Counted from the first letter of the whole stretch, positions 1,968-60,600 are shown. The stretch: DNA of 63,749 nucleotides, filler included, from Reclinomonas americana ATCC 50394 (GCA_048213135.1; 5 parts of 4 records of this genome joined end to end with filler, not necessarily neighbours in it); one strand, 5' to 3'. Translations and numbers: made by a program. The notes: a model not told the origin generated them from the sequence alone.

Positions 1968-2697
1968 CAACGGCAATGGCATCTTGTCGTTTGGCGAAAT
2001 CCAACGCGGTATCTGCGACGTGCTGCGCATGCCGCAGGCGGCGAAACTCAAGACAGCCGTGCGGTCGGCCATGAACGCGGCCAAGGCACTCTCTCTACGG
2101 CGTGATCCGCATTATCGTCCCGACGACGATTGGAGCGAGGGCTACATTCGCTGGAAGGAGTTCCGCCTGCTGCTGATCGCCTTGCGACAGGTACTGTCAT
2201 GGGCGACAGAGTGGGGCTCCACTGTGTCTTGCTTGCCTCAAATCGTTGTCGGTGCAGCTGTACATGTGGTACGACATTTTCAACGACATGGACGAGAATG
2301 GCGACAAGCGAGTGACGTGGGAGGAGTTCAAGGTGAGCAGCGCGATGAATGAGAAAAAAAGATTGCACCTCTCACATCCATTCCCCATGCAGACATCCCT
2401 GCCGGAGCTGGAGCGTTGGGGTGTGAACATACCGTCCGTGAAGCAGCAGCGACGCTGGTTCCGTGATATTGCGCCGACCGGAAAGAGCGGCTACATTTTG
2501 TTTGCCCAGTTGCGTCCTTGCGGTGGCTAACCGCGCGTTCGCACCGTGACACGCACCTGACTTGTACATGCAGGTGGGCCGAGTGGGCGGTTCACAAATT
2601 TGTGCTGAATGGTGTCAGTGATGACTCGGAGCCGGTTGTTGCCGCTCGTGTGCCATCAGTCCTCGCTCATCGGGAGGGCAGCACCAAGCACAAGTGA
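1968..2697 (+). CDS. Flagellar calcium-binding protein (calflagin/FCaBP-like EF-hand), 5' end in gap, 4 visible exons
   Basis: Spliced product NGNGILSFGEIQRGICDVL...EGYIRWKEFRLLLIALRQ|LYMWYDIFNDMDENGDKRVTWEEFK|TSLPELERWGV...SGYILFAQWAEWAVHK matches the FCaBP pattern (EFRLML, EEFK..P.LE.WG, F.EFA.WA). Confidence 0.8.
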
Positions 2698-2810
2698 TCG
2701 CACAAAAAATTGTTATTGATGACACAAGAAAAAAGAGAAAATTGTATTGGCTTCCAAGTGTTTGTTTGTCTTGTGTAAAAAAGAGAGGGCGCCGACAATG
2801 GCAGCGCAGC

Positions 2811-4442
2811 TCACTGGCTGCTGGACGCCGCACCACCGACAAACGGACCACGATGTGTCTGTAGCACACCTGCAGGCCACGAACGAGAGTCAGTATCTCC
2901 CCAACTCTGCTTGCATTTTTTAGGGTAACACTTACCACCCTGGCGAGTGGACGTGATGACGATCTCACCCACTTGCACACGCGCCGGTCTGCACAGGCAA
3001 GCACGATGAGTGGAAGAATACACACACACGCGCGCGCGCACACACACGGCCACTCACCGAGTGGCGATCCACACCACCGCATCGGCAATGTCTTGCGGTG
3101 AGAGAGCCACGTCGCCCTCCAACACCTTGGAGGCGGCGGCCTCGTCACCGTCCAGACGCTGCACAAAGAACTCGGTCTCGACGAGTCCGGGACTGACCAT
3201 CGACACATTGACGGGCGTGTTGACCAGCTCCTTGCGCAGCGACTCGGTGTAGGCGCGCACGGCGAACTTGGACGCGCAGTACACCGAACCGTGCGGGTAC
3301 GTCTCAATGCCAGCAATGCTGCGAAGCGGCGTGAGGTGAGGTTGGGGAGGGAGAGAGAGAGAGAGAGAGAGAGAGGAGTGTGTGTGAGTGCACACGCACC
3401 TCGCCACATTGATAATGTGACCGGAGCCTCGCTCAATCATGCGCGGCACGAACAGACGCACGAGCTGGATCAGCGCCTTCACGTTGGTGTCAAACACCTG
3501 GTCGACATTGATGGCGCTGGCCTCCCACGCCTTGGGGTAGCCCTGCGCAATGGGGGGAAATCGGTGTGAGGGCGGGGGCAGCAGAAAGAGGGGGGGTGAA
3601 GAGTGGAGGGCGTACCCTCGCAAGGCCTGCATTGTTGACAAGAATGTCAATGTCACGCATGTCTTCCGGCAGTGAATCGCGCAGCCCCTCCGTCTCCTCG
3701 CGGTTCATCAAGTCGCAGCGGGCACAGTGCACGCGCACCGCATCGCCATGCTTCGCCTCAATGTCAGCCTTGACCGACTCGAGGCGCTCCAGACGACGCG
3801 CCACCAACACCAAGTGGCACCCTGCACAGCCAATGAGTAACACGCACGCACAACAAGATGAACGAACGCACAAGCACGCACCTTCCTCGGCAAAGGCGTA
3901 GGCCGCGGCCATGCCAATGCCAGCCGAGGCTCCGGTGCTGTCCGAGCACACACAAGATGTCATTCAAGAGGAAACGAGGAGCCAAGAGAGAGAGAGCGAG
4001 AGAAAGAGAGAGAGTCAAAAGCTGAATCAATCATGCATGTCGGAGTAAGAAAGGCGAAGAAAGGAGCCAAAGGAGGAGCTTATGTAAGGTGAGCGGAAGG
4101 GACAGGGGAGAGAGCAGAGAAACTTGAAGAGGAAGAAGAGGAAGAGTCACGCAAAGTAGAGAATGAGAGAGAAACAACATGCACAAGTCATCAGTCAAAA
4201 CCTCAATCAATCATGCATGCATGTCGGAAAATGACAGGCGAAGAGAAAAGCACAAGGAGGAGCTTATGTAAAGTGAGTGCAAGAGGAGGAAGAGCCACAG
4301 ATGGAGGAGCCAACAGAGTGATGCATTGCACGTGAGAAAACACACTTTGCAAGTTGCACAAGCAAAGAGTGATCTCGGAGGTGATTGTCTGTGTGTTATT
4401 GTGACGCAACATGAGAACAACCTTGCCAGCGATGCGCACCAT
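2811..4442 (-). CDS. Short-chain dehydrogenase/reductase (YdfG/YMR226C-like), about 7 exons
   Basis: Spliced product MVRIAGKVVLI|TGASAGIG, DILVNNAGLA, GHIINVASIAG, YCASKFAV, VSPGLVETEF, LSPQDIADAVVW; all introns GT-AG. Confidence 0.92.
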
Positions 4443-4512
4443 GTCTTTGCACACAGAGAGAGAAGTAAGTGAGTGGGGGAAGACGCAAATTCATTTCACA
4501 CACAAACACACA

Positions 4513-5400: not shown

Positions 5401-6225
5401 ATGCAGACGGCGCGAATCATCAAGGATTTGGAGAAGCACGTCGGCGTCCTGGAGCAGGAGCTGAAGGGTGCACGTCTCGCGTCGCCGGCGTCTGCCGCCG
5501 CCGCGGTCGGCGTGTCGGGCGCCATTTCGCGATTCACGTGGAGCCCGCGGTGGCGTGGCGACAAGATGCTGCTGACGAACCACGGCAAGACCGCAACAGG
5601 CCACAGCTCGCGGTGCACGGTGGTGACGGAGCAGCTGATGGTGCCGCCACACGTGTACACGTTGTATGTGCAAGTCGAGCAGAAGCGCGACACCATGTGC
5701 AACTACTTGGGCGTGGTGCCGGCAAGCTTTGTCACGGAGCTGTCGTCGGGCGCTTACATTGAGAAGGCCATCACCATGGGTGGCTGGGGACTCCACGACG
5801 CGTCTTCGTACGGCATTCGTCTGCAGCAGCCTAGCGGCTCCTGCCTCTCCATTGGCTACAGCAATCGTTGCGTCGCTGCTTCCCCCCCATTTCGCTTGAC
5901 TCTTGATGAGGACGAAGTACTCACCGCCCGTTTCCACTCACTGCAGAGACTGGCTGGGATGTGGGTGACGTGCTGGTCATCACACTGGATCTGGCACTCA
6001 ACGTGCTCTCCTTCCACCGCAACGGCGTCAAGGTGGCCGACGCACACCTCGTGCATCACATGGATTTGACGCCGGAGCGTATTCGGCAAGGATTTTATTT
6101 TGGCGTAACGCTGGACGATGCGGTGAGTGGTAGATGCAGAACGAGTGCCACGACGAATCATGGATACTGATTGGGGGTGTGCATGTGCGCAGGGCAACCG
6201 TGTCTCAATTGTCGACCAATCATGA
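5401..6225 (+). CDS. Coiled-coil + SPRY/B30.2-like domain protein, C-terminal part
   Basis: LLTNHGKTAT, NYLGVV, GWGLH, then spliced QTGWDVGDVLVITLDLALNVLSFHRNG...FYFGVTLDDA|GNRVSIV; typical SPRY C-terminal pattern. Confidence 0.7.
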
Positions 6226-6369
6226 TGTATGTAATCGTAAATCGAAAGTTTCAATCATGTTTACCGCGCAGCGAGACACTTGTTGGAAGCACACACACAC
6301 TATACACACACACACACACACACGCACACACTTCTCTTCTTGTCGGCCCGCCATTCGTTTTCCCCGCAC

Positions 6370-6868: not shown

Positions 6869-8867
6869 TCACTTGGCCTTGGCGCCAGCCTTGCCGCCCT
6901 TCTTGCCCTTGGGTTCGGTTTTCTTGCGTTTCGGATCGGATCCGCCCTTGGCAGCCGACTTGTCCGACAACTGCAAATCAGGGAAAAAAATCAGCCACAG
7001 CCGCCCGAGTTAGCCTCATCCTCCACGAAACTGCTCTCTTGGTGCCGGCCAGTGGAGACCTGACGGCATCAGAGGAGCCGCTGCCCTCGCCAGCCGTGGC
7101 CGGCGCAGCGGCAGTTGGGCGGGTGAAAAACGAGTCCATGCGCGCCTGGGTGCCCTTCTTGCTCTGCGCCTTCTTCAGGCGCTCGATGCCGGCACGGATG
7201 CGATCGGCGGAGAACTTCTTCTCGTCCACCATGTACGCCACGAGACCGGCCTCGTCCACCGGCAGCCATTTCAGCTCAATGTCGTCGACTGGCGTGATGT
7301 CCGGATTCAAGAACAGATCGCGCACACTGTCCAGGTTCCAGTCCTCGGGAATTGGGTACTGCGGGAGGGAGAGGGAGGGAGGGAGAGGGAGGGAGAGGGA
7401 GGGAGAGGGAGGGAGAGAGAGAGAGGAGGGCGAGTCAGTCATGGCCCTGTGCAAAGCACCATCATTACACTGATGAAAAAGCAAAAACTGTAGAAGGTAA
7501 GCACACGAGACTTGTTGACAATCACTGGTGGATGCTCATTGTTGTGCATGGATCAGTGAAGTTTCTATTATTAATCTGTTATCAAACCTTGGTTCGGTCC
7601 AGCGTCTCCAGCACCGCCTCGATCGTGCCGTGCTCCTTGATCAGCTGGTACGCGCGCTTCTGTCCAATTCCCTGCACTCCTAATGTGAGCAGCTACAGAA
7701 GGTGTTGAAAGACAGGCAGTGTGGGCACGCACTCGAATGGTGCCGCAGTAGTCGCATCCGCACAAAATGCACATGTCGACGAACTGGCGGTGGGTGAGGC
7801 CAAGTTGTTCGAGGGCCACCGAGAGGTTGAATTCGAGAATGTTCTTCTTGGGGTCTTCGCCGGCCACGGCTCGCAACAGTGCACTGGAGAGAGGGAGAGA
7901 GAGCGAGAGATCAGTGTCAGTGAACAGGAGGGAATCGACACGCATCTCTTTCTCACCTCTTCTTCTCCGACTGCTTCTCCGTCGATGTCAAATTGCGCAG
8001 GAGAATGGGAGCACCAAATGTCAGCGTGTCCATGTCCTCGCTGCCGACAGCCCACACACGACCCGCTCGCGCCAAGGCCGCGCATTGCGCCTCTGCCTCG
8101 CCGGGAGACTGTGCGACGCTCAGGAAGAGATGGAAAAGATGCTGCTGTACGCAGGTGACACAAGNNNNNNNNNNNNNNNNNNNNGAGGAGGGAGAGTGAC
8201 AGCAAAGGAGAGCGAAGTGAGTTTACTAGAGTGCTCGGAAGGGCAGACTAGTTTGCGCAGCTGTGTGATAAATGAACTGGATCTGTGTTCCTCTCCGATC
8301 ACAATGCTGTGTATTTCTCCAAATGGCCCTTGCTCACTTTTTTCTCTCTCACACACACATACACTCTCCAGAACTTGCCACTTTCTCGGATAACCATTCT
8401 TCATCTGCTGGCCACTCTGCTCGTCCCCGACTGTCTCTCTCGCTCTCTCCGTCACTGCATCCTTTCTGTTCACACAATCGATCAAACTCTCCCTGCCCCC
8501 TTCCCTCTTTCCTTCCTGGCCTTCTCTCGCTCTCATTCTCTCTCGTAACGAACTTCTCTGTTTCCCCCTCATCTCATCCTGCATCATTCCCTCACTTTCC
8601 CATGCTGTCTCTTCCTTTTTTGTTTCTTTCTCTTCATCGGAAAATGTTTCTCCGTCACACTGCCACACTGCTCGTCTCTCACTATCTCATTTCTCTCTTT
8701 CTCACTGCATCCTTCCGCCCTTTCCCCTGGCCTGTTTTCTCATCTCATCTCTTCTCCCTCTCTGAAAGTCTTTCTCCGTCACAATTGCCACACTGCTCGT
8801 CTCTCACTGTCTCATTCCTCTCTCCCTCACTGCATCCTTCCGCCCTTTCCCTCTGGCCTGCTCTCTT

Positions 8868-9994: not shown

Positions 9995-10212
9995 ATGGGC
10001 AAGCTTCACAAGACGTATCTGTCGGGGAATCGTATCTATGCGTGCAGTGTGTGTCGATGTTGCGTCTCTCTCTTTCTCTCTGTGAAGTCGCGGGCCTTTT
10101 TTTGTTGGTTGTTGCTCACGCTTTTTGGATCAGCACACTTGGCGCAACAGGATGAGGTGATTTCCAAGTCGTTTCATGGGCGGCATGGTCGCGCGTATTT
10201 GATGAACAATGT
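9995..10212 (+). CDS. Yippee-like (YPEL/Moh1) protein, 5' exons; remainder in gap
   Basis: MGKLHKTYLSGNRIYACSVCR|SHLAQQDEVISKSFHGRHGRAYLMNNV; Yippee motif CxxC..HLA...ISKSF.GRHGRAYL. Confidence 0.9.
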
Positions 10213-10224
10213 GTTGCGTGATCT

Positions 10225-11556: not shown

Positions 11557-14500
11557 ATGCGGAGTATTACACTCCACATCGTGCTGATTGCACTGGCGCT
11601 CTGCGTGGCCACGTTGGATGCAGCGCAAGGTGAGCCGTGGCACAATCGGACACATATTCATCACAATGCGAACATATTGCTCATCATTGTCATCCGACTC
11701 TCAGCTGCCAGCGTGAGCTCGTTCTCGCCGCTTCATGCGCGCGCGGGCATTGCAAGCAGCGAAGACGTTCTCACCATCACCGGTGCGCGACGCGAATGTT
11801 TTATTGCTTGCTGCCGAGTGGTTTTCTCATATTCTCCGCGCGCTGTGCAGGCACTGGCCTCGCCACCGCTGACTCCGTGTGTCTGAGTCTCGGCGGCTGC
11901 CCGGCCGCGTGCGCTGGCACGACTTCAACACTGACGAACGCGTCCACTGCGCTAAATGGTTGGTGACCGCACTCAATGAGTGGCGCAGTTCTCTATGACT
12001 TGTCTCAACTTGGCATGCACGCAACAGGCGCGAGTGGCACCTCGACCGAGCACTACGTCATGCTCACGAGCATCACGGCTGGTGAATACTACGTGTGCTC
12101 TGGACCCGGTGGCGGAACCGTGACGTTTCGTTGCCGTCATCACTCGCTTCTGAATCCTCGACACTGACACTTCGTGCAGCCAAGTCGGCACTATGTTGCT
12201 GCGCTTGGTCAGCATCTCGGGCCTGTTACCGCCCTCCATAACTTCGTTGGATCCGACTGCGGTGGTGATTGTCAAGGTACTATGAGCCTCGAGAGTAGTG
12301 CTGTTGTTGCCGAAACTCACCTTCTTTTCACAGGGCCTGTACTTGAACCCGACCGACGTGGTGCAGTTCTCGACGTCGTCGACCTGTGCCGTGGTCGCTG
12401 CCACGGCGACGGGCATCACGACGACGAACCCGCAGCGTACCGAGCTGACGGCGTACATCGGCGGCACCGGACTGGCGACAGCGGCGACGTATTACGTGTG
12501 CTTGCAGGTCAATAGCAATCTGCCGTCGCTGGTGTTGTCGTCGCCGACAATGAGTGCCGTCAGTGCGTCATTTATTGTCGATGCCCCCCTCTTTGAAAAG
12601 AAAAAAGGACCCACATCCAATGTGCCTGCAGATACTGCGGTCCTGACGGGCTTCTCTCCCTCGAGCATTCCGACGTTGGACATTGGCGCCGTGCTCACTC
12701 TGTTGCGTTTGAGGGTGTGGTCCGGCAAGTACGTCTGATACCCCTCCTGCTCATCTGGTATGGGGACGATCAGTACTGGCACTGGCCTGCGCACGACGGA
12801 CACGATCATGTTTACGCGAAGTGCGTGCGCCATTGTTGCTGGCAGAGTGCTACATTCTTGGTGGTTGCTAAGTAATGTGTTGAACAGACACGTGCAGCGA
12901 CACCGCAAACGTGTACACATCGACTGGTCCGCGGCAAGTGATCATGGACAGCTATGCCTACACCTCCAATGACGGTGGACCGAATCGACGCATGATCATC
13001 ACCGTGGGTGGCATTGGGCTGCCAGTGGACAACCTCGGCGCATCGCAGACATACAAGATCTGCTACACTGGCTACGTGGCCACGGGCACTGCTTCTGCTG
13101 CTCTCTTTGGCACGAATCTTACCTCAGGTTCGTTTTATGCTCTCACGTGAGTCTCATGAACGTGATGTTGAATGGTATGAGTTGTGCAGTGGCGTTCTAT
13201 CAGATCGACAAGTGGGCAGTGGACACGAGTTCGACTGCCGCGACAATCACCATCACTGGCGGTGTGACCACAAGCGACAAGGCCATCATCGTGGCTGGGT
13301 ACGATTGCCCGCACGCCGGAGTGAGTTCGGGTATCGTGAGTATCAATGGATCCAATGCCCTCACGTCTGTGTCGCTGAGTTCCAGTGGCAACGGTGAGTT
13401 TGGTGATGTTTTGATTGCCCGCCGTGCACACTAACATGTTGCTTGTCTATTCCTTGACGCAGGACCATACACGGTGTGCGTGTTGATTGGCGGCACGCAA
13501 GTAGGTGCTGTCAAGACGGTACAGGTGTGGAACCCCGGTTGGGGATACTCGTCCACGAGTGGCCTGGCAACAGCTGGCGGCAGCGGTGCTGGCTTCACCA
13601 TTAACATCAGTACTGTCACCAGTGGCATTCTGAGTGCCACCATGTCAACCGGCGGCACAGGCTACGTGGTCGGCGATACACTCACCGTTACTGGCGGATC
13701 GAGTGGCCAACTTGTGGTGCTTACGGTGAACGGCAGCGCGGTGCAGACGGTGGCTGTGTTTACTGCCGGCAATGGGTACACGACGACTACATCTTCACCG
13801 TCCGCCACCAGCGGCGGCACTGGGTCGGGCTGCACGGTCAACATCCTCTCTGGCACCATCTCCTCGGTTGCAGTCAATGCCGGCGGCTTTGGCTATCAGG
13901 TCGGCGACATTATTGATGTGGTGCAGACGAATGGTGCCAGTGGCCAGTTGTTGGTGGTGGAGACAAGCACGGGAACCAACTGGCGCAAGATTGGCGACAC
14001 TGCTCGCCCTCCGACTCCGATTGTGGAGAGTTGCGTTTTTCGTCTCTTGTGATCATCTCTCAGCACGTCAAAGAACTCATTCACCTTGCTTTTTTGTTGT
14101 CCATCTGCAGAGTACGCGTTTGAGCCACGGACGATTCCCGAATCGACTGCTGGTGCTGTGCTGACACTTACTGGTGCTTCGACGCTGGCGTCGGTCTCTG
14201 TCAAGGACTGTGGCAGTTCGACGATCATCTGCTCGGTGGCAGCAGGCGCCGACTGGGGACCGACGAACGGAGCATACTATGCGCTCTGCACTACCAGCTC
14301 CGTCGCAGCGGTTAGTAAGTAGCGTACATAGTGGTGATGCATGTCACATGCATTCCTCGGCAGGCGATGCTGATGGAGTTTTGTGTGCGCAGGGCATCTA
14401 TGATTTGTGCATCTCGTCGACGTCGACTCAAATCAACCAATCCGGATGGCCGCTGATTGTGGGAAAGTGTGGCTGGTACAACATCAACTTCCGGCCGTCG

Positions 14501-16134: not shown

Positions 16135-16382
16135 CTCCTGTCTGTCTCGTTTCGTCGAAGCTGACTCGCCCCGCCCCCGTGTGTGTGTACACAGGGAGTG
16201 CTGGACTCGAATGGCTACGGATACATGGGATTCACGGCTGGCGTTGGCGATGTGACGCAGAATGTGGACATTCTGTCGTGGGCGTTCTGCCACAAGCTGT
16301 TGCGTGCGGAGTGCGCGTCTTGCAATGTCGAATCATGCTCACTCTTTTGTGTGTCGTGCGCAGCGGCTGTGTGGCGTACTGA
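11557..16382 (+). CDS. Large secreted protein: signal peptide, Ig/TIG-like Cys repeats, Gly-rich GYxVGD module, C-terminal legume (L-type) lectin-like domain; many exons, spans a gap/linker
   Basis: Signal peptide MRSITLHIVLIALALCVATLDAAQ; repeats FSP...LTxTGTGL..D.V.F...C...YxVC; lectin-like VMRLTKQK...YYGDQLYLKNGFEARFRFRI and GYMGFTAGVGDVTQNVDILSWAF. I traced the splice phases by hand to TGA 16380-16382. Confidence 0.8.
16003..16014. other. Artificial contig linker TTAATTAATTAA flanked by Ns
   Basis: The identical 12-mer, with stops in all six frames, sits inside N-runs at 16003, 30096, 54571 and 61871. Confidence 0.95.
16059..16132. repeat. (TG)n microsatellite (intronic)
   Basis: Direct reading. 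Confidence 0.95.
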
Positions 16383-22500: not shown

Positions 22501-23400
22501 GCAATGGACACGTGAACCATGGTGGCTGCCAATCGCAAGCACAAAAAGTAGGAGCCGGGCGCAACCGCACTGGTGTCAAACAGGACAGTGAGACGCGACG
22601 TTGATCGGAGAGTGGCCCGTCCGAGTGCCACCGCAAATCCCGGACTGCGAGAAACCAATCAGCAAGTGCACGGCGCAGCAGAGACACAGTAAAGTGAGTG
22701 CAACATTGCCGTGCAATCCGTGGAGAGTGCCACTGCATTCGAGTCGAGCCGCACATCCAGAAATCCACCACCACCAATGGCAACCACCTGCACGGTGGTC
22801 GTGGCCAGGGTCACCGGATACACTGACGTCACCGAGTCTGCGTCCGCACGTGTCAGCAAACCCATCGGCGCACACGTCGACCTTGAAAACACGATACGCA
22901 ACAGATGGTGAGCGGAACGCCAGCGTCATCGTATCCACTGGCTGAGGTTGACACGGTCCACTGAATGCATAGCCGAGCAGTCCCGGCACTCACACCCGTG
23001 GCATCGATCGTCAGAGAGATCGCCTGAGCGATCTTATCCACCAGTGTCACCGTCGTGGTGCCGAGCACCGTCGGCGCGGAACACGAGGTCGACGACAGCA
23101 CGATTGGCGATCCACTCGCTTGAGAAAGATCAATGGCAATACCACAACCAAACTGCGACACGCACGCGCGCGGTCACAACGGATGGCTCAACACGATGCG
23201 ATGAAGAACGCGCTACACGCACCAACTGCACTTGCTGAGCGGCGGCGGCAGCAATTACGGGCGGCGTGACAAACATGACGGCTGGGAGCATGGCACGTTA
23301 GCAACACACATAAGGCTCATGCTGCGCATGAGAGGGAGGCTATAACGTACCGCCAGCCATGGTTGCAAAGCGGATCTTGCGATTGCCCTGGGAGTGACGA

Positions 23401-23431
<31 letters not shown>

Positions 23432-47800: not shown

Positions 47801-49258
47801 ATGCATCGCTCGTCCTCTTCCTCCTCCTCCGCCGAGTCCTCTTCATCTGCGACTGGCTCCCCGTCGTCGCCAACACTGACCGGCTCCTCCTCTGCAGAGG
47901 AAGCACTCTCGCCTTCGTCGCCCGCAAGCTCCTCATCGACAGCGTCGGATCCTCCGCCTGAATCTGCGTCCTCCTCCTCGTCGTCATCGTCATCGCTGCG
48001 ACACTCGTCTCCAGGTCTGCAAGCCGACACACCACCCGTGGTTGTCCTGTCGCAGCCGGCGCGTGTTCATCTCCACCATCACCATCATCATCATCAACAT
48101 CTCCTGCATCATCACCACCAGCGACATCACTTGCCGCTGGCGGCCGCGCGTGCGTATCAGATGCTGAGAGGCGCTGGACACTCGACGACGACGACACCGG
48201 CTGCCGCAGCCTCGGGCGCCACCAAGGAGGACTATGCGAATGCCAGCTTCTGGGATTGTCGGTATGCGGAGTCGCCGTCGGCATCGTTTGAGTGGTTTGC
48301 TTGGCTTGTGCGCTTGCTGGTCTGTGATGCCGTGCGTCTCTCACGTGGGTGCATAGGCTGCAGTCGTGGTCGTCGTTGCACGATGTGCTGCAAAAGTACA
48401 TGGTGCCGGGCTCCAAGGTGCTGGAGATTGGCTGCGGCAACTCCAGTTACGGATGCATATTCTCCCTGCATATTCTCGCCCTCACCCTCTCCCCCTTGTC
48501 TGTGGACGCAGATCTGTGCTCTGAACTCGCCAAGGCCGGCTTTGCGAGTTTCGTGCTGCGCATGTCTGCTGTTGTTGCTGTTGAACTCACGTTGCTCCCA
48601 AATGGCCAGATGTCACCGGCATCGACTTTAGCGCGGTGGTGATCTCGCAGATGCAGGAGCGCTACGCACAGCGGTCGGAGATGCAGTGTTGCGTGGTGTG
48701 CGCTCTGCGTATCATGTGCGCGTGCCCGGCTCTCATCGTGTCGCCGGTGCGCAGTCACCACCATGAACGCAACGTCGCTGCAATTCGATCCAAACACTTT
48801 CAACATGGTGATCGACAAGGCCACTCTCGACTCTATCATGTGTGCGCGACAGGGCGCCGACACGGCACGCGCAGCAGTGCTGGAGGCGCATCGCGTGCTT
48901 CGCGACGGCGGCGTGTACGTTGTTATCAGGTCTCGTTTCCCCCTCAACTTTTGCTCGCTGGCATTTTCTTTGCTCTTCTCACGTGCCCTTTTCCCCCTCG
49001 TCGCAGTCACGCGGTTCGTGGCCATCGCCAATCCTCTTTCCTTTGATCTCCCGGCTCACTCCTTTTTGCATGCAGGGTCCGGCGGAGCGCCTGTCGTTGT
49101 TGGAGACCGAGGGCACCTCTTGGCGCGTCGAGTGGACGACGCTACCGTCAGCGACCGAAGGTCGTTCGCACTACGTGTATGTGGTCAAAAAGTCGCTGCG
49201 GCGTTCGCGCTCCACCAGCATCGCCTCGCAGCTGTCTCTAACGGGATACCCAACATGA
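47801..49258 (+). CDS. Class I SAM methyltransferase, EEF1AKMT4/METTL13 N-domain-like, with Ser/His-rich N-terminal extension (start uncertain)
   Basis: DYANASFWDCRY...FEW|LQSW, KVLEIGCGNS|NL, NVTGIDFSAVVISQM, FNMVIDKATLDSIMC, HRVLRDGGVYVVIS. Confidence 0.88.
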
Positions 49259-49307: not shown

Positions 49308-52300
49308 TCATCGCTTCTTGAACGAGAAGCCGCTCGCCTCTTCCTCCTCGTCGTCGATGACCATTGACGAGGTGGTGGTGGCCGCACGCTGCAATACAAA
49401 CACGATGGGTTACTTCCTCATACTAACCGCTGAACACAGCACAGCACCACGTACCGACAAAGCCTGCTTGGTGGCATCGCTGATCTTGCCGCCCTTGAAC
49501 AGCTTCTGCTCCACCATCTCCTTGGCCTTGGCCTTGGCCGCCGCCTTCTTAGCCTCCTCCGCCTTTTCGGCCGCCTGCCCCACCCACACATGAGTGAGCA
49601 TTCGATTGACATCATCATCAGCATCAGCGTCGTAACGTACCAGTCGTGCCTCTCGTGCCTCCGGAGTCTCTGCGTCGACTGGGGCGCGCTTGGGCGTCGC
49701 CGGTGCCGCCGACGGCTCAAACGTCGATGGCGTCGCAGACTGCGTGCACGTGAGTTATGCAGGGAGCAAGAGAAGGTATGGAAGCGGGGAAAAACCGCAC
49801 CGACGCGGCCGCCGAGCCCTTGACCGGCGTCACGCCAATGACAGCATCGAGTGGTGCCTCGGCCACACCCGTCACCTTGTTGGGCGAGAACTTGACAAAT
49901 TTGCTCTTGCGCGCACTGGCCGGTGTCTCGGGGGCCTTGCTCGCAGTGGTGCCCTTCTTGGCCGGCGTGCGAGGAGCGGATCCTCGTCGAATCTTGCCGC
50001 CCTCCACTTTGCCGCCGCTGCCAAACACCATCTCCTGTTCCTCTTCGTCTTCGTCTTCGGGTTCGTCGACAGCCGACTCCACAGGCGCAGTCGCCTTGGC
50101 CGTGGTGCTTGGACCGCGCTTCGACGGTGAGGGGGCTGAGGGCGAAGGCGCACAGTCAGAATGCAGCAAACAAAATGAGGAGTACGTCTCTCGTGCGACA
50201 ACAGACCAGTGTCACTGGACACCGCCACGTCTTCGTCTTCGTCCTCGGAATCCGAGGCAGCGCCACCAGCAGTGGCCGCACTGCCGTGTACAGGTCGTGC
50301 CGAGTTGAATGACTCGCGCTGCGTCACTTGCATGGACGATGCAGTGGCGGTCACCGTCGTGCTCGTCGCGGAACCAGTGTAGCGTGACGCTGGTGCAGCA
50401 GCAGCAGCGGCAACAACAACAGGCCGAGAGGCCAGTTCCTCCTGCAAGAGCAGCGCATGTGATCAGCCACGCACAACGACAACCATGTCGAAGATTCCGT
50501 AACACACCAACTTGCGCTGCAGCGCGGCCACTTGTGCGGAGAGCGTCTTTTCCACGTTCTTTTGTGCCACATCAACAGCATTCGTGACAATTGCCTGCGT
50601 CTCCGCACTGTTCGTAATGCATGTAGGTGTGAGCAACTGAGAGTGGGAGTCTGGCGGCACACACATACACACACTGACCGTCGCATGTTCTCCTCAAAGT
50701 GCGCCAGCTGCGCTTCCACTTGTCGCTCGGCAAACGCAGTGGTGATGCGCTGCGCCACAGCCGGATAATTCATGTGGTGCACCAGTCGGGCAGCGGTCTC
50801 TGCAGGCACGTACACCCCGCAGCATATCGAGTGAGACACACGAGACTGCGGTCGTGAGAGTGACAGAAACCGCACGTACCGACAGCCTTGTCGGTGCACA
50901 TCAACAGCGCCAAATCAAACGCCTTGGTCACATGTTGCTTCTCAATGGCGCTCTGCGACACGGACGAGAAGGTTGAGCTGTGGCGAATCGGACTCCTGTC
51001 ACCGACAAACGAGTCACCTTGATCATGCGCAGCAGCGTCTTGTCAATGGCATTCTCCAACGCCTGCTTGTCTGGCGGGTTGTGCGGGCGGGCGGCCATGC
51101 ACTCCAGACCGAATTGCTGGTGAATAATGCTGCACAGCACATGCGGAGGAAAGGAGAGCGCGCGTCAGCAACTACCAGCGCCATGGGAGAATCAGCTGTC
51201 TTGTCTCCTCACCCAGCCTCCTGTCCAGTAAACGCCATGCCCGGATTCAACAGCGGCAGCGACATGGCCACCGAGTTGACAGACGGCGGTCGAACGACGT
51301 CCGGGAACGGACGAGACGCCTGTGTGGTGTGTACGTACATGTAAGAAGACGATAGACAATTGGCACAGAGACAGCAAGAGCGTACAAACCGTGCACTCGA
51401 CGACAAACACATCCTGATTCTCGTGACCAAACACCCACAGTGGGCGGGCGCCGTTCTGCGACAGTGGGCTGGAACGCAGCTCGCACATGACGGCCCATTG
51501 CAGAGGCGTCTTCAGAGGCACACCGCGGACAACGCCAGTGGAATCGGCAGCGATAAAAAGCTGTGTGGGATGTCAGCAGCGGCACGATGTTGGGTCGCAG
51601 GCCGGCATGCAACACGCAACATTGGGATCCGACTCGGAGAACCCAAGCCATGTCAATGCTGCTCCCGGCGACACAGGCACCACGCCATGATCGACCTGAC
51701 ACCGTGAGCGCATGGCCACGGCCAAATACTCGAAACCGCCTGTAATGTGGTGAGCAGCGGATGATGGAGAATGAAGTAAGAACGTCGCGCGCACCGCAAT
51801 TGTCGTCAAAAACCAGCACCAGCATATCATTGCTGTTGGCCACCACGCACACGGGCTCGCGGTGCACACTGAATAGGCCGCATTGCACGCCTCCGCTGGT
51901 GAGCACACGCACGAACAGCCGGTTGGTCACGCAAGCGCAAAAGTGCCGACCGAGTCCAATACCCAGTGGTTCCTACACAATGCAATGGCGTGAGTCGGAA
52001 CTCCTCTCACCTCAGCGTGTTGTGTGCACGCGCACAAACCTCGCCAGGCGACAAGTGCAGCGACCAATCGGCGTCCGGTGTCCACTTGTCAAAGGCGCGG
52101 AACATGACCACTGCGGGGTTGCCGCCGTTGCTGTGACTGGCAAACAAGGCACCCGTCGCCGCTGCGTTTCGTGGCGGTGTAAGCGAGGAGCAGCAATAAC
52201 GCGCGTTGTCATTCTCAGCTCACCCATGGACGCCATGCGCAGGCCGTGATGCTCGGTGAAACGCACAGTGGGGTGCGACTTGTCGGAGAACTCGATCTCC

Positions 52301-54417
52301 ACCGACCACGACGTGTGAGCAAATGTCGACTTGATGCGACCCAGCAACGTGTAGGCGAGGAACCGACGACCCTCGACTTCAGGAGTGCTGCCGGGGAAGA
52401 GAGGCGGGTGTGCCGCGACACTCCGCAACCGACCGACTACACACCACGACATTGTTGAGAGGAGCAGTACATTTGCGCAGACAATAAAACGCGTGTACGC
52501 AACCACCGCCACGGCGCCTGTGACCACCCGCCTCTGAATCGTCGTCATCGTCGCTATACGCACGTCGCTGGGAGTGTGTGCTCACGATGAGCATCAAGGT
52601 GACTGCAATTCCCTTGGAAGAGCACATCAACTCTCACCCGTCGCTTCCGGGGTCCTGCGCCAGACAAACCAACCTGCAGGTCCTCATCCTCCTCCGAGTA
52701 GCCCTCACCATCCTGTTATCGCAACATACGTGAGTGTGGAGGTTGGCTAGCACTCATCGAACAAGCACAGTACCTCGTCGTCGCTGGCTTCCTCGGCCTC
52801 GTCATTGCTCCACGCGTCGTGGTCGCCACCTGTGCGGCGCCGGCGCTTACGAATGCGTCCTGCAGCAGCAGCAATCATAACGTGAGACATGGACCCGAGC
52901 AAAGAGAGTGGAAGCGCATCAAACGAAACGCTTCTCGGTGCGCTCGTCGCCCGACGACTCGGCGTCGAAATCAAACATGTCGGTGGCAGGCGCGGCAGGT
53001 TTCGCACCCGCTGCCTGCGAGTCGACGGCAGATGCCGATGAAGCATGAGCAGCAGCAGAAACAGCTGCAGTGGGAGCCGCAGCAGAGACGGGAGTGCGGT
53101 CCACATCCATCGAGTCGACCTGTGTGGCGATGACGACTGTAAGATTGCTTTCCACGCACACAACAAGTTCGTCTGAGCGGCGCGACTGACCTTGCGCAGC
53201 TCCTCCACAGACACGTGCGGCGGTGGCATGTAGTCGGGAATGACCTCGGGCCAGTACAGTACACGACCATCGCCGTCGGCAGCCGCCAGCGCATTGGACA
53301 CCAGAGACCACACGACCACGAGCACCGGCGAGTCGTGCTTGAAGCGATCGAGGCATTCCTTCTTCGCCACGTCCCACACAGAGACAATGTTGTCCATGCC
53401 ACAGGCCGCCAAGTAGCGCCCAGTGCCGGAAAACGACACGGCGGAGATCGACTGCGTGTGCACCGAGCCGACCAGCATGGCCTTCAATTCGAATGACCGC
53501 GCATCGTACACCTTGATGTCTGGAGATGCGGTGAGGAGAAGAGGGGAATGAATGCAGCCTAGATTGTCCATGATTCGCAACTTTTGCCATCTGGCACCGC
53601 AATCGTCTCGCCACGGGGATGCCAGTCGAAGCGCAGTGAGTCGAGGTCACTGAGAAGCGGCCAGTTGAGCAAACACACAATAGGCTTCACAACACGTAGT
53701 GCGAATTGTGCACGAAACTCGGGAAGCACTTTCTGGATCGGCAGCGAGTGCACCGCTTCACCGCCATCGACGTTCCACACGCGCAGGAATCCGTCGCAGC
53801 CGGCCGTGGCCTGTCGGAAAACATGAGCACGACAACGGTGCAGTGCAGGCGGTGAAGACACGCACCACACGCTTTCCGTCAGGCGCAAAGCGCACATGCT
53901 TGACCGCGTTGGTGTGCCCACGCAGCGGCGTCGACTGGCGATGATCAAACGTGCTCACCAACCGCACCAGCGGCTCACTAACACGAGCGACAAGTATAAC
54001 ATTAGCGACACGGACGAGGGCTGATCGCTGCGCCCCGCACGCAACTCAGAGGCGCACGCCAGCAGCGCGCCACTCGGCGAGAAGCACACGCTGCGCACGG
54101 GCTTGGTGAAGCGCGTGACCGTGCCACCGGCAGTCGACAAGCCCGGCAACGACAGCAATCGCACTCCATGATCCTCGGAACCAGTCGCCAACTGATCGCC
54201 CTACTCACACGCACAGACAATCAGCTCCATGCACGCACACATGCAACTCACAATGCATTGTCGTGCACTGACCTCGGGCGACACACTGAGGCACGTCACC
54301 GCCGCCTCATGCGCAGTCTCCGATCGCTTCACTTGCTCGAACTCGGCCACCGAGGAGTCACTCGGCTTGACACGGAACGAGCACACGGCTCCGTCGGCGC
54401 CGCACGTGAACAGCAGA
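49308..54417 (-). CDS. WDHD1: WDHD1/AND-1/Ctf4 replisome factor; 5' end in gap
   Basis: N-terminal WD40 (LFTCGADG, ATGSEDHGV, TRFTKPVRSVCFSPSG, LRGHTNAVK, FDWHPRG), acidic linker, SepB domain PLFPGSTP..GRRFLAYTLLG...VEIEFSD, GGVQCGLFS, LTWLGFSE, WPLWV, helical DKTLLRMI. Confidence 0.88.
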
Positions 54418-54522: not shown

Positions 54523-54570
54523 GTAGNNNNNNNNNNNNNNNNNNNNNNNNNNNNNNNNNNNNNNNNNNNN

Positions 54571-54582
54571 TTAATTAATTAA
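54571..54582. other. Artificial contig linker
   Basis: TTAATTAATTAA within Ns. Confidence 0.95.
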
Positions 54583-54637
54583 NNNNNNNNNNNNNNNNNN
54601 NNNNNNNNNNNNNNNNNNNNNNNNNNTTTTTTGCGCA

Positions 54638-57600
54638 GCGACCGACACTGTGGGAGCGCTGAAGCAACGTGTGTGCGACGAGTTTGGAGTGCCTGGAGTC
54701 GCCGGCGACACACTCGTGCTGGTGGACGATGGCGCGGAGCTGGGTGTGGACAGCAATGATCGGCGTCTTGGTCAGCTCGGCAGTGTTGCGGGTGGCAAGC
54801 CGCTGGCTGTGGTGCGTGCACTGTGGCTGGTGTGGTGAAGACAGTCTGCGATATTGACACTGTGTGTTGGTTCGTACCACCGCAGCGATGGTTGCCGTAT
54901 CCGGTGACGGTGGGTCGATGGAGCGGCAAGAAGGATGTGTGCACTGTGACAGGTGAGTATATGAGCTGCATGAAGGGGGGTAACGATAATTGGCTGGCTG
55001 ATTTCGTCTTCGATGCTCCAGCGGTGACACCGATTAGTGCACTCCGCGAGCACGCAGTGGCGCAAGAGCACTTGCCCCCTGCGGTGGCCAAGGAGGTGGT
55101 GCTTCGCGACCGCCAGGGTCATGTGCTTGCCGAGGGCGATGATGCCACGCCAGTGGCTCGTGTCGGCATCCGTCCGACCGATGAGGTCGCAGCGGTTCGT
55201 GTCGAGTGAATGGTGCGTCAAGAGTGGAGATGAGTAACGTGACTGTTGTCGGCAAGCAGGAACTGAAGACGGAGACGCTCGACATTGAGCTGCCGAGTGG
55301 ACGAGTTGTTCAGGTTCCAGATCTCCGAGGTCTGTGCATCACAACGTGTTTGAATGCTGTTTTCTTGCTTCTAACCTCTCGTGTTACGCATTTGTGTTCT
55401 TCTGTTGCGTGTTTGGTGCAGCATCGGACGGCCTGCGACGCCTGCAAGAGCAAGTGTGCGAAGCCGAGGGTCTCCCGAAGTCAGCCGCCAATCAAGTGGA
55501 GCTGCTGCGCGACGACCGCGCGACTGCACTGCCGACTGGCGACGAGGGTGCGAGTGTTGGTGGTGTGGGACTGCATCACGGCAGCAAGGTGGTGGCACGG
55601 TGGCACGAGTCNNNNNNNNNNNNNNNNNNNNNNNNNNNNNNNNNNNNNNNNNNNNNNNNNNNNNNNNNNNNNNNNNNNNNNNNNNNNNNNNNNNNNNNNN
55701 NNNNNNNNNNNNNNNNNNNNNNNNNNNNNNNNNNNNNNNNNNNNNNNNNNNNNNNNNNNNNNNNNNNNNNNNNNNNNNNNNNNNNNNNNNNNNNNNNNNN
55801 NNNNNNNNNNNNNNNNNNNNNNNNNNNNNNNNNNNNNNNNNNNNNNGCCGCTGAACGTGGTGACGTGGAGCGGGCGATCTGTGCCTGTGCGAGCCACTCG
55901 TTGCGTCCGGCGTCTCCATACTTTGATGGAAGGTGGTGGAATTTGATGGTTGACTGACTAAGTGTGAATGCAGCGGCGACGACACTGGGAGCCATTGCAG
56001 AGCAGGTTGCTGCGGCCGAGAACCAGCCAGCGCCGGTGGCGCAGAACATTGTGCTGCGAGCTGGCGGCAATCGTGATCTTCCTCGCGATGGTCAGACACC
56101 GTTGGGAGCGGCTGGAGTGCAGCCGAACGAGCGCGTCGAGGCTGTTGCGTGCTTTCGATCATTTCCACTTGTGGATTTCGCTCTCTCACCACTGCATGCC
56201 ACCAGATTGTGCTACCGATGAGCATCGAGGTCGTCACACCTGCCGGTTCGCGCACTGCGATCGACAATCTCAAGCGTGCGTTTATGTCGTCTTTCTGTCA
56301 CTCACGGCCCATACCCGGTCTCAGTCTGGCATTGTCATTCGCAGCGACCGACACTGTGGGCGCACTCAAGCGCCGTGTGGCCGACATTGACCACATGCCC
56401 GAGTCGATTGCTCCTACTCTCGTACTGCGCACGGCCGAAGCTGGAGCTCCGCTGGCGGCGACCGACCAAGACAGTCTGGCCGTCGCTGGTGTCGGTGCGC
56501 GCTCTATTGTCTTGACGGTTGGTTACGCTTCTCCATCTGCCTCCTGTGCTGTGATCGTCTTGTGTGTTCTCACGAAGCAATCGTGGCAGTCGTGGCCGGA
56601 GAAGAAGCTCACGTTGCGCACGTGGACTGGGCGTGCTGTTGAAGTGTCGACTGTCGGTACGTGGAACCTCTTTCTTCGCTGTCGCCCTGTTGACACTTCC
56701 GTTGACTTTCGCCAACAGCCTCCACTCCTCTGAGCGACTTGCGCGTGCGTGCCGCACACTTGGAGGGTCTGCCACCGGGCGCAGTCAAGTTTGTGCAGCT
56801 GCACGATCGCCCTGCGCAAGCCGCAAGTCGGCAAGTGGACGGCGAAGGAAAGCAGATTCTCGCCGACGCCAATCTTGCCGGAGACGAGATTGTCGCGGTT
56901 CGTTCACCTGCCCAGGTTGCTTGGGAGGGAGAGAGAGTGACAACACGTGACTGACCAGGTGCTGTTTGATGCAGGTTTTGCGGTCCCCGGTCTTCACGCT
57001 TGCCACTCCGCTGGCGAAACCTGTTCCTGTGGGCGACATCAGTGGTGAGTTCGTCAGTGCCGAAAGTTGTGTGTTATGCCGAGTGGGTTACTCACATGAG
57101 GTTTCAGCTGCCGAGCCGCTGAAAGTCATCCAGGAGCGCGTATGTATTGCCGACGGAGTGCCATTGATGGCCGCGCCGGATCTTGTGTTTGTGCGCGCAT
57201 CAGGCCAACCCATCGAGCAGAATCCATCGCATTCATTGGTGGCGGCTGGTGTCGATGACAATGATGTGCTGGTGACGGTCTGTATTCTCCTAGAATACAG
57301 AGGTTCGGGTCGCGTCACCTCTTCGACTCACGTCATTATTTGCAGCGCTGGAAGGAGCGCACTCTGCGTATCGCCACGTGGAATCGACGCACTATTACCG
57401 TCAGTGTTACTGGTGCGTGCATGTGTCTTGCCGCGTCAGTTTCCATGTTTTTCACTGACGTCGCTTTGTTTTCCGGCGAGCAGCGGTGACTCCACTTTCG
57501 GAACTGCAGTCGACTGTGGCGCACGTGGAAGAGCTGGACCCGTCACTTGGCGCCGCAGCAGTGGTGTTGTCGTCGCAAGATGGTCGACCGTTGCCGCACG

Positions 57601-60600
57601 ATCTGTTGATTGCACAAGTGCCGGAGTTGGTCGACGGTGCCACCATTCAGGCGGTATGTATCTACACATCTAAGCTTGCGAGTGGGGTTCTGTGCTCACG
57701 AGAACGTTTGTCGACAGACCCTCCAACAAGTTCCGCTCACGGTTGTGCCACCGTCTGGTCGTGAACCGGTTGTGGTTTCCGACGTCCCTCGTTCGTCGCG
57801 GCGTGCACACATCTTTGAGTTGTGTTTCAACTCTGCGTACTCATCCGTCCGCTTTGCTTGTGCAGTGACGGGCACCTTTGCACCGGTGGTGGAGCGCATG
57901 TGCGTTGCCGATCGTGTGGCGCCTGCAAGCGCCGCTCGCCATGCTCGCCTGTTCCACAATGGGCGCGAAATCCCACACCCACTGGAGACCATCGTGGCGG
58001 CGTCTGGCGTGCCCGCCGGTGCCACTCTCACCTCGGTCAGTTGACCCGATCAGCATGCGAATTGTGTTCCGCGCGCTTTTGCTAATTGTGTGGACTGCGC
58101 AGTCTTGGGCTCCGATGCAGCTGAATGTGCTTCCGGCAAGCGCCGCTGGAGGGCAGGCGGCAGTGCCGATCTCTGTTACTCGTTGCGTAACTAACACACA
58201 TGCCGCGCGATTCTTATGTGACGTGATGCTCACTGGACGCAATCAGCCGCCACCACAATCAACGAGCTGAAGCAGCAGTGCGCCGAAAAGTCTGGAATGC
58301 CGCCGTCAGTGGCCCCATTCCTGGCTTTGCGCAGCGCGCAATCAGGAGCTCCACTTGGTGGCGACCATGTGCAGACGGTGTCGCAGTTGGAGCTGACCGG
58401 TGGCGAGTCCATCCAAGTGGTGAGTTGTTTCACCAATGTGTTGCGATGACGTCTGCGAGCGTTGACCATCTCCCTTGCGTTTACAGGATGGAGTCCCGGT
58501 CACTGTCAACGTGCAGTTGGAGGATCAGAGCGTGGTGTCTCTGCGTGCGCCAGGTGCGATTGCCTTTCGTGATGACGATTTCATTCGTAGCTCTGCTGAC
58601 CGACATTGCACTGTGGTCTACCAGTCACCGCCCCGGTCAGCAGCCTCAAGGAGCAAGTATTGCAGTCCTCTGGCATTCCAGTCGCCGATCAGGAGCTTGA
58701 GTTTGACGGCATCGATCTCGACAATGATGCGTTGCTCGGGTCGTTTGGCGTGGTGGATGGAACTACGATTATCTTGGTGCGTTGGGCTTACACTCTCTTT
58801 GGGATCTCTCGTGATTGCTCACATGCGCGACAGCGCGAGGCCGTCGAGGTTGTGGTGGAGACGCACACACTGAAGACGATTACTCTGCGCGTGCACTGTT
58901 GCGTCTCATCGATGTATCCACGATTCGTGACCGCGTGCTGATGGTGGTGCCGTGGGCAGATGACACGACGATTGGCAGCATCAAGGAGACCATTGTGGGC
59001 GTGGAAGGCCTCGACGTCGGCAAGGTACAGATGGGCAACGACAGCGGTCCGCTGGGTGATGCGATGACCATTCGTGATGCGGGTGTCACCAAGGGCTCCG
59101 TTCTGAAGATGGTGAGCCGTGCATGGTTGCTGTCTGTGAAGGGTGTGATTGATTCACGGTGTACTCTTTCTTGTCACAGACCGCGGTGGATGATCAGAGT
59201 GCGGTTGCAGCGGTGTGTTTCTCCTCAATCGCAGTGCTGTTTGCTCGTTGATGCCGGCTGCTCAACTCATTCATACCTGTGTACAGCCGTCTCAGCGCCC
59301 GCTTTTCTTCCGCAAGAAGCGTGAGGTGGCGGCTGATGCGCAGATTGTGGATCGTGCTGCGGCAGCGCCGCTTGGCGCCTCGTGGATGGAAATGGACGAC
59401 GAGGATGTGTCTGTCGGTCCTGCTTCGCCACTGTCACCACAATTCTCCGCGGTGCCGCCACAGCTGCCGACGATGATCGATTCGTGCCCGTATCACTATC
59501 GCGTACGCGCCAAGAAGAATCGACGCCCTGGCTCGGCTGCGCCGGACAAGAACTTGGTGAGTGCGCGCTAAGATTACATTCGTGGTGTGCCCTCGCTTGC
59601 CAACCTCGCGAGCTGTCGTGCAGTACCCGTTGAAGCCGAAATTTGGTGTCGAGCTGGCTGGTGAGTCGTGTGTGTAGTAGGTAAGCGTGACGTTACCGAG
59701 TTGCTGACAACGGCGGTGCTTTTGCAGAATCGGAGATCAGCGGTATGCTGGTCGACTTTACGGCCACCATTACCGTGTTGCAGCGCTTTGTGAACCGCGG
59801 ACCGGCTGGTCAGTTCCAGTACGTGCTGCCGCGTTTGCAGCCCAGTGCAGTGATCACCGAGGCCACGTTGAGGATGCAGCGCACGGAGTACAAGGTTTAG
59901 TCTCCGTCTGCGGTGATCAAGGAGAATCGGAGCTGCACACATGACTGACTCGGTGCCCCGCCCAGGTTACGGCCCAGCGCGGCACGGCGCAGCAGTTCGA
60001 GGAGTTCGACAAAGAGGGCGAGAGCAACGAACAGGCGGCTCTCATCCGCGACAGTGAGCAGGAGGTGCTACTGATCGACGTTGGCCGACTTGAACCCGAG
60101 GAGGAGGTGCGAAGGGTTGAAGGAAAAAGGTGCTGTGCATTTCATGATACTCACGCGCCTCCACCAATCCACCAACAGGTCGTGGTGCGCTTCTCGTATG
60201 CCTTCGAGGCCGAGTACGACAAGGACACGCGCAGTATTCGGGTGACGGTGCCATTGTCGGCATTGCAGGAGGAGCAGCTGTAAGTCGCCGGTGTACGTGC
60301 TGTGCTTGGCGCTCCTTCCGTCACTCACGTGTTGGATTTGACAGGTCGTCAAAGGATGACTTGGTGGACATCACGTGTCGCATGTCGCGCCCCGTGCTCG
60401 AAGTGCTCTCCCCGACCCACCTGTGTCGCCTGGAGCGCACGGAGAACCAGGTGCAGGTGGTAGCCATGGGCAGTCAGCCGGTGTACGACCAGTTCGTGCT
60501 GCACGTGTATCTGCAGGCACCGACGTTCCCGCTGTGCTCTTCGTACCGCCACCCCGGTGCTCCGCGCAACGCGTCGCATGCCATTGCAGTGGCTCTCGGT

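Follow-up and report, generated by a model that had tools for sequence, protein, structure and literature searches.

Two discrete 5' splice-site consensi in the short introns of a Reclinomonas americana genomic stretch point to an extra or altered recognition factor

Can short introns of one kind, in one genome, use two different 5' splice-site (donor) consensi, and if so, what reads the second? The question is raised by a stretch of DNA of 63,749 nucleotides (nt), filler included, from the intron-dense microbial eukaryote Reclinomonas americana ATCC 50394 (GCA_048213135.1; five parts of four records joined end to end; the window hereafter), for which a preliminary description had listed 32 introns beginning with GTTGCG and had read them as a second donor class. 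Here class A denotes introns with donors of this type and class B those with the ordinary local donors, and a slash in a splice site marks the exon-intron boundary. The window has 55% G+C, contains many GA/TC and GT/AC microsatellites and is interrupted by runs of N. All 32 coordinates read GTTGCG on the given strand, with T as the next base in 27, and on both strands together the window holds 78 copies of GTTGCG and 39 of GTTGCGT. For the longer motif 14.26±3.64 copies are expected and none of 100 dinucleotide shuffles reached 39; its density of 0.64/kb compares with 0.073/kb in 342 kb from 80 other eukaryotic loci, where it is about nine times rarer.

Continuity of the open reading frame (ORF), which we take to be the main basis of the original hand-splicing, carries little weight in this DNA. 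If a GT counts as passing when some YAG at a distance of 45-150 nt on its 3' side leaves 40 or more open codons to either side of the splice, 4094 of 8325 GT sites pass (49%), and GTTGCG, with 46 of 78, is unremarkable. Random ORFs are long at the window's G+C, so that continuity barely discriminates, and tests blind to the donor were therefore used. Codon-usage clustering did not separate the coding ORFs of the window, codon bias being too weak to help; next to nothing came out of an initial Viterbi gene model in which the donor was flat; and GTGAGT was unusable as a clean canonical donor set because most of its copies lie inside microsatellites.

The evidence comes from the 3' side of the introns. 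The stricter of two 3' modules, in which CTVAY is followed after 8-32 nt by the first AG, itself preceded by Y, at 50-110 nt from the GT, is found behind 1107 of 8306 GT sites, a background of 13.3%, and behind 28 of the 78 GTTGCG (p=4e-7), 19 of the 39 GTTGCGT and 25 of 57 GTT.CGT; a looser module follows 27 of 78 GTTGCG, 18 of 39 GTTGCGT and 21 of the 32 sites described earlier. When all hexamers found 45-115 nt before 252 3' modules are ranked by enrichment, GTTGCG comes first (30, with 10.5 expected), and TTGCGT, GGTGAG, GGTGCG, CAAGGT and AAGGTG come next. An unsupervised expectation-maximization mixture, in which the 1107 qualifying sites were set against all GT sites as background, resolved into three components: a GT microsatellite, '..../GTTGCGTgtc', and 'g..G/GTGaGTg', the last with G at -1 at a frequency of 0.94 and G at +5 at 0.86.

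A combined scan score was then computed from donor position weight matrices, branch, acceptor and length, the null being the same scan of the reversed sequence. At a score of at least 10 there were 95 real and 10 null matches (36 class A and 59 class B), and at least 8 was reached by 141 real and 27 null matches (52 and 89); class A alone gave 36 real matches at score 10 against 2 in the null. The ratio of class A to class B among detectable short introns is about 40:60, at roughly 10% false discovery. Class-A lengths are tight (median 65, interquartile range 61-70.5 nt), and the ORFs bridged by class-A introns are longer than background (median 61 versus 47 codons, p=0.005). The list of 32 introns survives in good part: 21 score at least 8 and 18 at least 10, those at 4410 and 54045 are placed by homology outside or below the scan, and seven are weak or ambiguous. 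By motif excess, linkage to 3' modules, the unsupervised split and the homology-placed junctions described next, the second donor class is real; class-A candidates are genuine GT-AG spliceosomal introns, of the U2 type to judge from their ends, branch motif and restored proteins, and two discrete 5' splice-site consensi are in use.

Six class-A junctions are placed by protein similarity, five of them computationally (4410, 10059, 35851, 53581 and 54045) and the one at 40124 by eye. In these, use of the second GT of GTTGCGT, or a slide of both intron ends by one base, breaks the frame or creates a stop. The sequence joined at 4410 (KVVLI/TGASAGIG) is the dinucleotide-binding start of a short-chain dehydrogenase, and from TGAS onwards the exon on the 3' side can be aligned with a solved chain of that family and with the adh_short profile. 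At 10059 the exons match the YPEL5 chain 8qbn_Y over residues 1-22 and 24-48, a weak match overall (E 0.093); the split codon fills the gap at residue 22/23 without insertion or deletion, and moving both ends by +1 gives a stop. In the WDHD1/Ctf4-like gene the PF24817 match covers positions 57-106 in the exon upstream of 54045 and resumes at about 106/107 downstream, the pair used being the only GT/TAG pair that fits both frames, and at 53581 it ends at position 201 in the upstream split codon and restarts at 201 downstream; at 53718, in the same gene, the PF24817 alignment has 19 extra residues within the ORF that holds the predicted intron. Once five introns (that at 35851 and four of class B) are removed in silico, 323 residues of the PLRG1/Prp46-like product align without a gap to the ortholog P0073. 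At 40124 splicing restores what we take to be the leucine-rich-repeat pattern, and an LRR_8 match lies nearby. The junctions at 4410, 10059 and 40124 had been fixed by protein motifs in the preliminary description as well.

The two consensi differ in what they require. Class B reads G/GTGNGT and requires G at -1 and +5, whereas class A reads H/GTT(G/T)CGT and requires +3T, +5C, +6G and +7T, but nothing of the exon (at a score of at least 10, +3T in 32, +6G in 34 and +7T in 27 of 36). Counts of 3' modules, made on sequence patterns independently of the classifier, show the dependence of canonical donors on the exon G: GGT..GT has a module in 54 of 185 cases versus 84 of 763 for HGT..GT, the latter being background, and for the GTG form the figures are 33 of 94 (GGTG.GT) versus 46 of 450 (HGTG.GT). 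GTTGCG has one in 26 of 69 cases after a base other than G and in 2 of 9 after G. By the same counts class A accepts only T at +3 (GTAGCG 0 of 11, GTCGCG 9 of 60 and GTGGCG 16 of 111, all background), and at +5 only C (GTT.[AGT]GT 8 of 54, again background). Conserved G and U lie at +6/+7 in class A as against +5/+6 in class B, and a weaker G and then T at +8/+9 as against +7/+8. At the sequence level the class-A motif is thus the local class-B consensus displaced by one base into the intron, and the near-absolute exon-end G of class B is dispensable in it.

Most of what had been said earlier about these donors is borne out. The observation is confirmed and is stronger than first stated, and the register relation holds at the sequence level: ordinary donors do follow G (86 of 89 class-B sites at score 8), and the conserved G has moved from +5 to +6, in two discrete classes of which class A has the consensus moved by one base. 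GTTTCG had been proposed as a parallel form and proves to be one, given the counts for GTT.CGT above, the homology-placed junction at 35851 and scores of at least 11 at 7031, 12125 and 48548; GTTAC without +6G (4574, 46172), proposed likewise, finds no support. The remark that the exon before GTTGCG lacks a final G holds numerically (G in 4 of 32) and fails as a preference, as there is no depletion relative to non-donor GTTGCG (5 of 46) or to all GTT (18% G); pattern-defined class-A donors have -1G in 2 of 34, with no enrichment either. In class B none of the 59 sites at score 10, and none of the 89 at score 8, has G at +4; the exon side is unusually strict in its near-constant -1G, and G is scarce at -2.

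Beyond the donor the two classes are alike. The acceptor is CAG in 90% of class A (n=40) and 94% of class B; the spectrum of branch motifs is the same, with CTCAC first, and the branch-to-exon distance is 18 in each; no position of the branch context differs (all p>=0.22), G+C is also similar, and median lengths of 65 (class A) and 69 (class B) show no distinguishable difference. Neighbouring introns on the same strand are AB in 38 cases, BB in 37 and AA in 11, so that the classes are interleaved within genes. The classes differ only in 5' splice-site recognition, and the machinery of the 3' side is common to both. An all-against-all blastn of 40 class-A intron bodies found one weak 17-nt pair and no common body, and the pairing run between intron ends (4.98, versus 4.96±0.16 permuted) indicates that the ends do not pair. 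An introner family was rejected because class-A intron bodies share no sequence, and nonconventional introns of the Euglenozoan kind were rejected because the ends are GT-AG and do not pair; the shared branch, acceptor and length, together with the unshared bodies and unpaired ends, argue against both of these and against a separate minor-type spliceosome.

What, then, reads class A? Each donor, from -3 to +9, was folded on the textbook 5' end of the small nuclear RNA (snRNA) U1, a sequence that does not come from this genome, with pseudouridine treated as U. Class B binds this end with a mean of -7.4 to -7.5 kcal/mol versus -3.0 for 300 decoy GT sites (area under the curve, AUC, 0.90), 42 of 59 sites in the canonical register, and when U1 positions 4-8 were varied in 1024 ways, the textbook end came second for class B, which suggests that a canonical U1 is present in the organism. 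Class A, with a mean of -1.8 to -1.9 kcal/mol, binds it more weakly than the decoys do (AUC 0.33) and in no consistent register; its required +5C would face a mismatch, and the best of the 1024 variants for it is its own complement, ACGCAAC (AUC 0.89). No single U1 5' end serves both classes, the best minimum AUC being 0.75. To judge from these sequences, class A points to an extra or altered 5' splice-site recognition factor.

We propose that class A would be read through base pairing to an RNA complementary to GUUGCGU (ACGCAAC), one position out of the class-B register. The simplest such reader would be another snRNA of the U1 type, or a paralogue of U1 whose 5' end has changed, alongside the canonical U1, and cleavage would still be set at the GU by downstream machinery common to both classes. 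The seven well-conserved positions of class A, its required +5C, its AUC on the textbook end beside that of class B, and the AUC of its complement all argue for a dedicated complementary reader. That a second U1-type RNA reads class A is the explanation we favour, over an ordinary U1 in another register and over any other reader, with a confidence that stops a little short of even. The fuller picture, in which one U2-type spliceosome has two readers, a canonical U1 for G/GUGNGU and a second U1-type snRNA complementary to GUUGCGU for about 40% of introns, is put forward more tentatively. Several points weigh against these proposals. The 5' ends of U1 rank with the best-conserved RNAs known. Neither Rfam nor tRNA scans found a match in the window, so that no snRNA lies there. 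Because the U1 end was the textbook one, pseudouridine counted as U and help of the U1C/Luc7 type was ignored, the weak predicted pairing is compatible with an ordinary U1. The weight matrices come from the very 64 kb that they were used to scan, which makes the class sizes approximate; and the exon-side similarity of class A at -1/-2 to class B at -2/-3 was seen in classifier-defined sets, whereas in pattern-defined sets the exon-side shift beyond -1 is not significant (log-likelihood -96.2 shifted, -95.5 unshifted).

The closest competitor dispenses with a new RNA: the ordinary U1 may recognise these donors in a register shifted by +1 or bulged at U, the weak helix being compensated by lineage-specific changes in U1C, Luc7 or Prp8, or by later U6 proofreading. 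It would explain why class A looks like class B moved by one base, down to the weak positions after the conserved GU, and why -1G is dispensable in class A only; the restriction of +3 to T is what a shifted register needs, and agrees less well with a generic bulge than with that register or with a degenerate U bulge. Given favourable flanks, the class-A consensus folds on the textbook U1 in the exact shifted register (-4.7 kcal/mol), and shifted and +2/+3-bulged registers are proven in human cells (PMC4856993). The actual class-A sites, however, average -1.8 kcal/mol against -3.0 for decoys, with +1G paired to C9 in 9 of the 36 best folds, and GTTGAGT-type donors, which should pair better, stay at background; the strict +5C goes unexplained. 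We therefore regard this competitor as possible but on balance unlikely. The earlier proposal that the lineage uses the shifted register routinely, with G+1 standing in for exon G-1, keeps its sequence relation and its freedom from -1G and loses its pairing, as the textbook U1 binds class A below decoys; plain shifted pairing of canonical U1 would be the less likely version of the idea, and a variant U1, named there as an alternative and now our leading guess, appears to fit better.

The remaining explanations are less probable still. Poor predicted U1 pairing beside a motif of high information content could mean that the main reader of class A is not U1 but a sequence-specific protein, or early pairing with U6 or U5 in a U1-independent or U1-light mode of splicing; no complementarity to the conserved U6 box (by reasoning from its general sequence) is apparent, we know of no such system serving a large share of introns, and we consider this improbable. 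That class A is no donor class at all, and arises from hand-splicing in long GC-rich random ORFs, from an introner family or from cleavage at a nearby GT, would agree with the permissiveness of ORF bridging (49% of GT sites) and with the seven weak or ambiguous sites among the 32; it becomes very improbable in the face of the donor-blind statistics, of six homology-placed junctions at which alternative GT/AG pairs break the frame, of the lack of a shared intron body (one weak pair among 40 introns) and of intron ends that do not pair. The donor of class A is long, highly conserved and free of an exon-side requirement, and both classes occur in the same genes, as would be so if class A belonged to a separate, transformed minor (U12-like) spliceosome, yet branch motif, context, acceptor distance, length and G+C are those of class B and the donor is unlike the U12-type consensus, so that we give this origin hardly any credence.

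Several known systems invite comparison with the two donor classes described here. A mass expansion of U12-type introns in Physarum was reportedly described by Larue et al. in 2021; such introns resemble class A in forming a second information-rich donor class, without an exon-side requirement, in genes shared with ordinary introns and possibly with an snRNA of its own, and differ in that class A has no class-specific branch site or spacing and an unrelated donor sequence. That U1 recognises atypical GUU... 5' splice sites in a shifted register is said to have been reported by Roca and Krainer in 2009, and U1 pairing with a bulged nucleotide at +2/+3 by Roca et al. in 2012. Human shifted-register sites (PMC4856993) share with class A the GUU start, the conserved G/U at +6/+7, G+1 in place of exon G-1 and cleavage at the GU; all validated noncanonical U1 registers together are put at an estimated 1.5% of human 5' splice sites there, versus about 40% of short introns here. 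The human sites work because +4/+5 pair with U1, whereas G and C at these positions in class A pair poorly and predicted binding falls below decoys. The +2/+3 bulge, shown in Fig. 1C of that source, likewise places one extra U between GU and the rest of the consensus; here, however, the extra base is U only, and -1G, which would add a pair, is not enriched (2/34). A precedent for more than one U1 species in a genome is the diplonemid S. specki, whose two U1 genes differ in their 5' pairing ends (PMC12621601); both variants were reported to fit one donor logo there, whereas the window shows two discrete logos, and no U1 gene was seen in it. Variant snRNAs have also been reported in human (PMC8457000). 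For the diplonemid D. papillatum the count is 1.6 introns per gene and the median lies below 1 kb; diplonemids other than this one have (G)/GTATG donors (PMC12621601). Full-text literature searches returned no paper that gives GTTGCG/GUUGCG as a donor consensus, and a genome paper for the species may already show both logos.

Coordinates of the introns and candidate donors are given in the table.

Table. Class-A introns, class-A variants, weak or ambiguous GTTGCGT sites and class-B comparators in the window
Feature	Length (nt)	Positions	Strand	Evidence or remark
Class-A intron AT/GTTGCGT...CAG/C, first intron of short-chain dehydrogenase gene	473	3938..4410	-	splice gives KVVLI/TGASAGIG
Class-A intron, Yippee-like gene	75	10059..10133	+	exons match YPEL5; scan score 11.9
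Class-A variant intron GA/GTTTCGT, PLRG1/Prp46-like gene	64	35788..35851	-	ortholog alignment
Class-A intron, leucine-rich-repeat gene	65	40124..40188	+	splice gives NLRHL/HTLNLSQN, by eye; scan score 12.8
Class-A intron A/GTTGCGA, WDHD1/Ctf4-like gene	62	53520..53581	-	PF24817; scan score 12.4
Class-A intron, TAG acceptor, WDHD1/Ctf4-like gene	68	53978..54045	-	PF24817; scan score 7.9
Class-A intron	65	2509..2573	+	scan score 11.3
Class-A intron	80	5867..5946	+	scan score 12.2
Class-A intron	72	12702..12773	+	scan score 13.1
Class-A intron	81	14030..14110	+	scan score 14.6
Class-A intron	65	16299..16363	+	scan score 14.4
Probable class-A intron, GH28-like gene	63	26873..26935	+	scan score 7.2
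Class-A intron, GH28-like gene	61	27000..27060	+	scan score 14.6
Class-A intron	70	31178..31247	+	scan score 11.7
Probable class-A intron	67	32124..32190	+	scan score 6.9
Class-A intron	73	32740..32812	+	scan score 14.9
Class-A intron GTTGCGC	62	41183..41244	+	scan score 12.8
Class-A intron, methyltransferase-like gene	67	48688..48754	+	scan score 13.1
Class-A intron	62	56144..56205	+	scan score 10.4
Class-A intron	65	58182..58246	+	scan score 9.5
Class-A intron, ubiquitin-like-domain gene	62	58898..58959	+	scan score 13.3
Class-A intron GTTGCGC	62	18950..19011	-	scan score 11.1
Class-A intron	75	19312..19386	-	scan score 8.9
Class-A intron GTTGCGA	65	21561..21625	-	scan score 10.6
Class-A intron	65	22838..22902	-	scan score 13.2
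Probable class-A intron AAG/GTTGCGC, PLRG1-like gene	69	36649..36717	-	in frame, stop-free; scan score 9.5
Class-A intron T/GTTGCGT, absent from the preliminary description	60	51561..51620	-	class-A posterior >0.8; 3' module found 60 nt on
Class-A variant intron GTTTCGT	61	6971..7031	-	scan score 11.8
Class-A variant intron GTTTCGT	55	12125..12179	+	scan score 11.2
Class-A variant intron GTTTCGT	62	48548..48609	+	scan score 11.0
Probable class-A variant intron GTTTCGT, WDHD1-like gene	69	53650..53718	-	scan score 7.9
GTTGCGT, doubtful donor		18674..18680	-	CAG/GTGCGT at 18713, 33 nt upstream in frame, gives 78-nt intron; from 18680 only 45 nt
GTTGCGT, ambiguous		10213..10219	+	GA repeat, then N gap, downstream
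GTTGCGT, weak		39592..39598	+	scan score 2.2; purine-rich sequence downstream
GTTGCGT, weak in scan		55900..55906	+	scan score -0.9; by eye CTGAC...CAG 3' end at 74 nt
GTTGCGT, weak		24134..24140	-	scan score 3.2
GTTGCGT, not chosen by scan		23497..23503	-	116-nt option keeps frames open
GTTGCGT, not chosen by scan		52497..52503	-	67-nt option ending TAG keeps frames open
Class-B comparator intron AAG/GTGCGT, PLRG1-like gene	62	36244..36305	-	ortholog-placed
Class-B comparator intron CAG/GTGTGT, PLRG1-like gene	78	35971..36048	-	ortholog-placed
Class-B comparator intron CAG/GTTTGT, PLRG1-like gene	75	35491..35565	-	ortholog-placed; +3T with +5G and exon -1G
Class-B comparator intron GCG/GTGCGT, PLRG1-like gene	71	35308..35378	-	ortholog-placed

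Intron lengths are very tight across the window (interquartile range 61-73 nt), and CTCAC, not CTAAC or CTGAC, is the commonest branch-like motif, present in about half of the introns of either class. The intron at 3938-4410 (-) is by far the longest found and, by eye, contains two similar copies of a segment of about 150-200 nt. Tandem candidate donors 4 nt apart occur at 41611/41615 (+) and 59661/59665 (+), where a class-B GT (G/GTGCGT, G/GTGAGT) overlaps a class-A-like GT; these are possible alternative 5' splice sites that would shift the frame. Four identical 100-base blocks, each consisting of TTAATTAATTAA with N44 on either side and each adjoining a microsatellite, lie at 15959-16058, 30052-30151, 54527-54626 and 61827-61926; they look like an all-frame-stop scaffold linker, and the window accordingly looks like a joined draft scaffold.

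Identity between the PLRG1-like protein and its orthologs, chytrid ones included, is about 70%. In a quick tree its branch is long and unplaced and lies outside the chytrid clade, from which the best identities come; the protein's N-terminal region is too divergent for the junction at 36717 to be placed by homology, and in a metagenome scan of 80 PLRG1 loci none exceeded 82% identity on the conserved exon, so that the scan yielded no relative for a comparison of orthologous introns. A query with a WD40 exon returned generic repeat proteins. Genes specific to the lineage lack close relatives. A very large multi-exon gene at about 16900-24400 (-) holds seven of the listed GTTGCG sites and has one marginal fibronectin-III match; among 1.8 billion representatives it has only 7 weak relatives (best E 2e-10), and a homolog search with the gene at 31-32 kb, with three listed sites, found no relatives. 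For the GH28 glycosidase gene at 26100-27680, Pfam matches stop short of the junctions at 26873 and 27000, and PDB searches gave nothing or chance matches. The EF-hand gene at 1927-2527 (+) has its best Pfam match in the EF-hand family of the flagellar calcium-binding protein (FCaBP). Together with the GH28 gene this had suggested a euglenozoan, diplonemid origin, which was rejected on the intron number and donors of diplonemids given above. For the long exon at 27978-29228 (+), which has no Pfam match, language-model features indicate a likeness to proteins of Fanconi anaemia group E (FANCE; score 0.93).

Where it has been studied, the diversity of donors has been explained by one mismatch-tolerant U1 end together with rare alternative registers. 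If about 40% of the introns here use a discrete, displaced and highly conserved consensus that this U1 end should bind poorly, R. americana would offer a natural experiment: it could show by what means cleavage is positioned without regard to the register of U1, and whether U1 can duplicate and specialise. Gene finders trained with one donor model would wrongly splice many of the genes in this genome. A two-reader system, if true, would be the major-spliceosome counterpart of the division of labour between U1 and U11.

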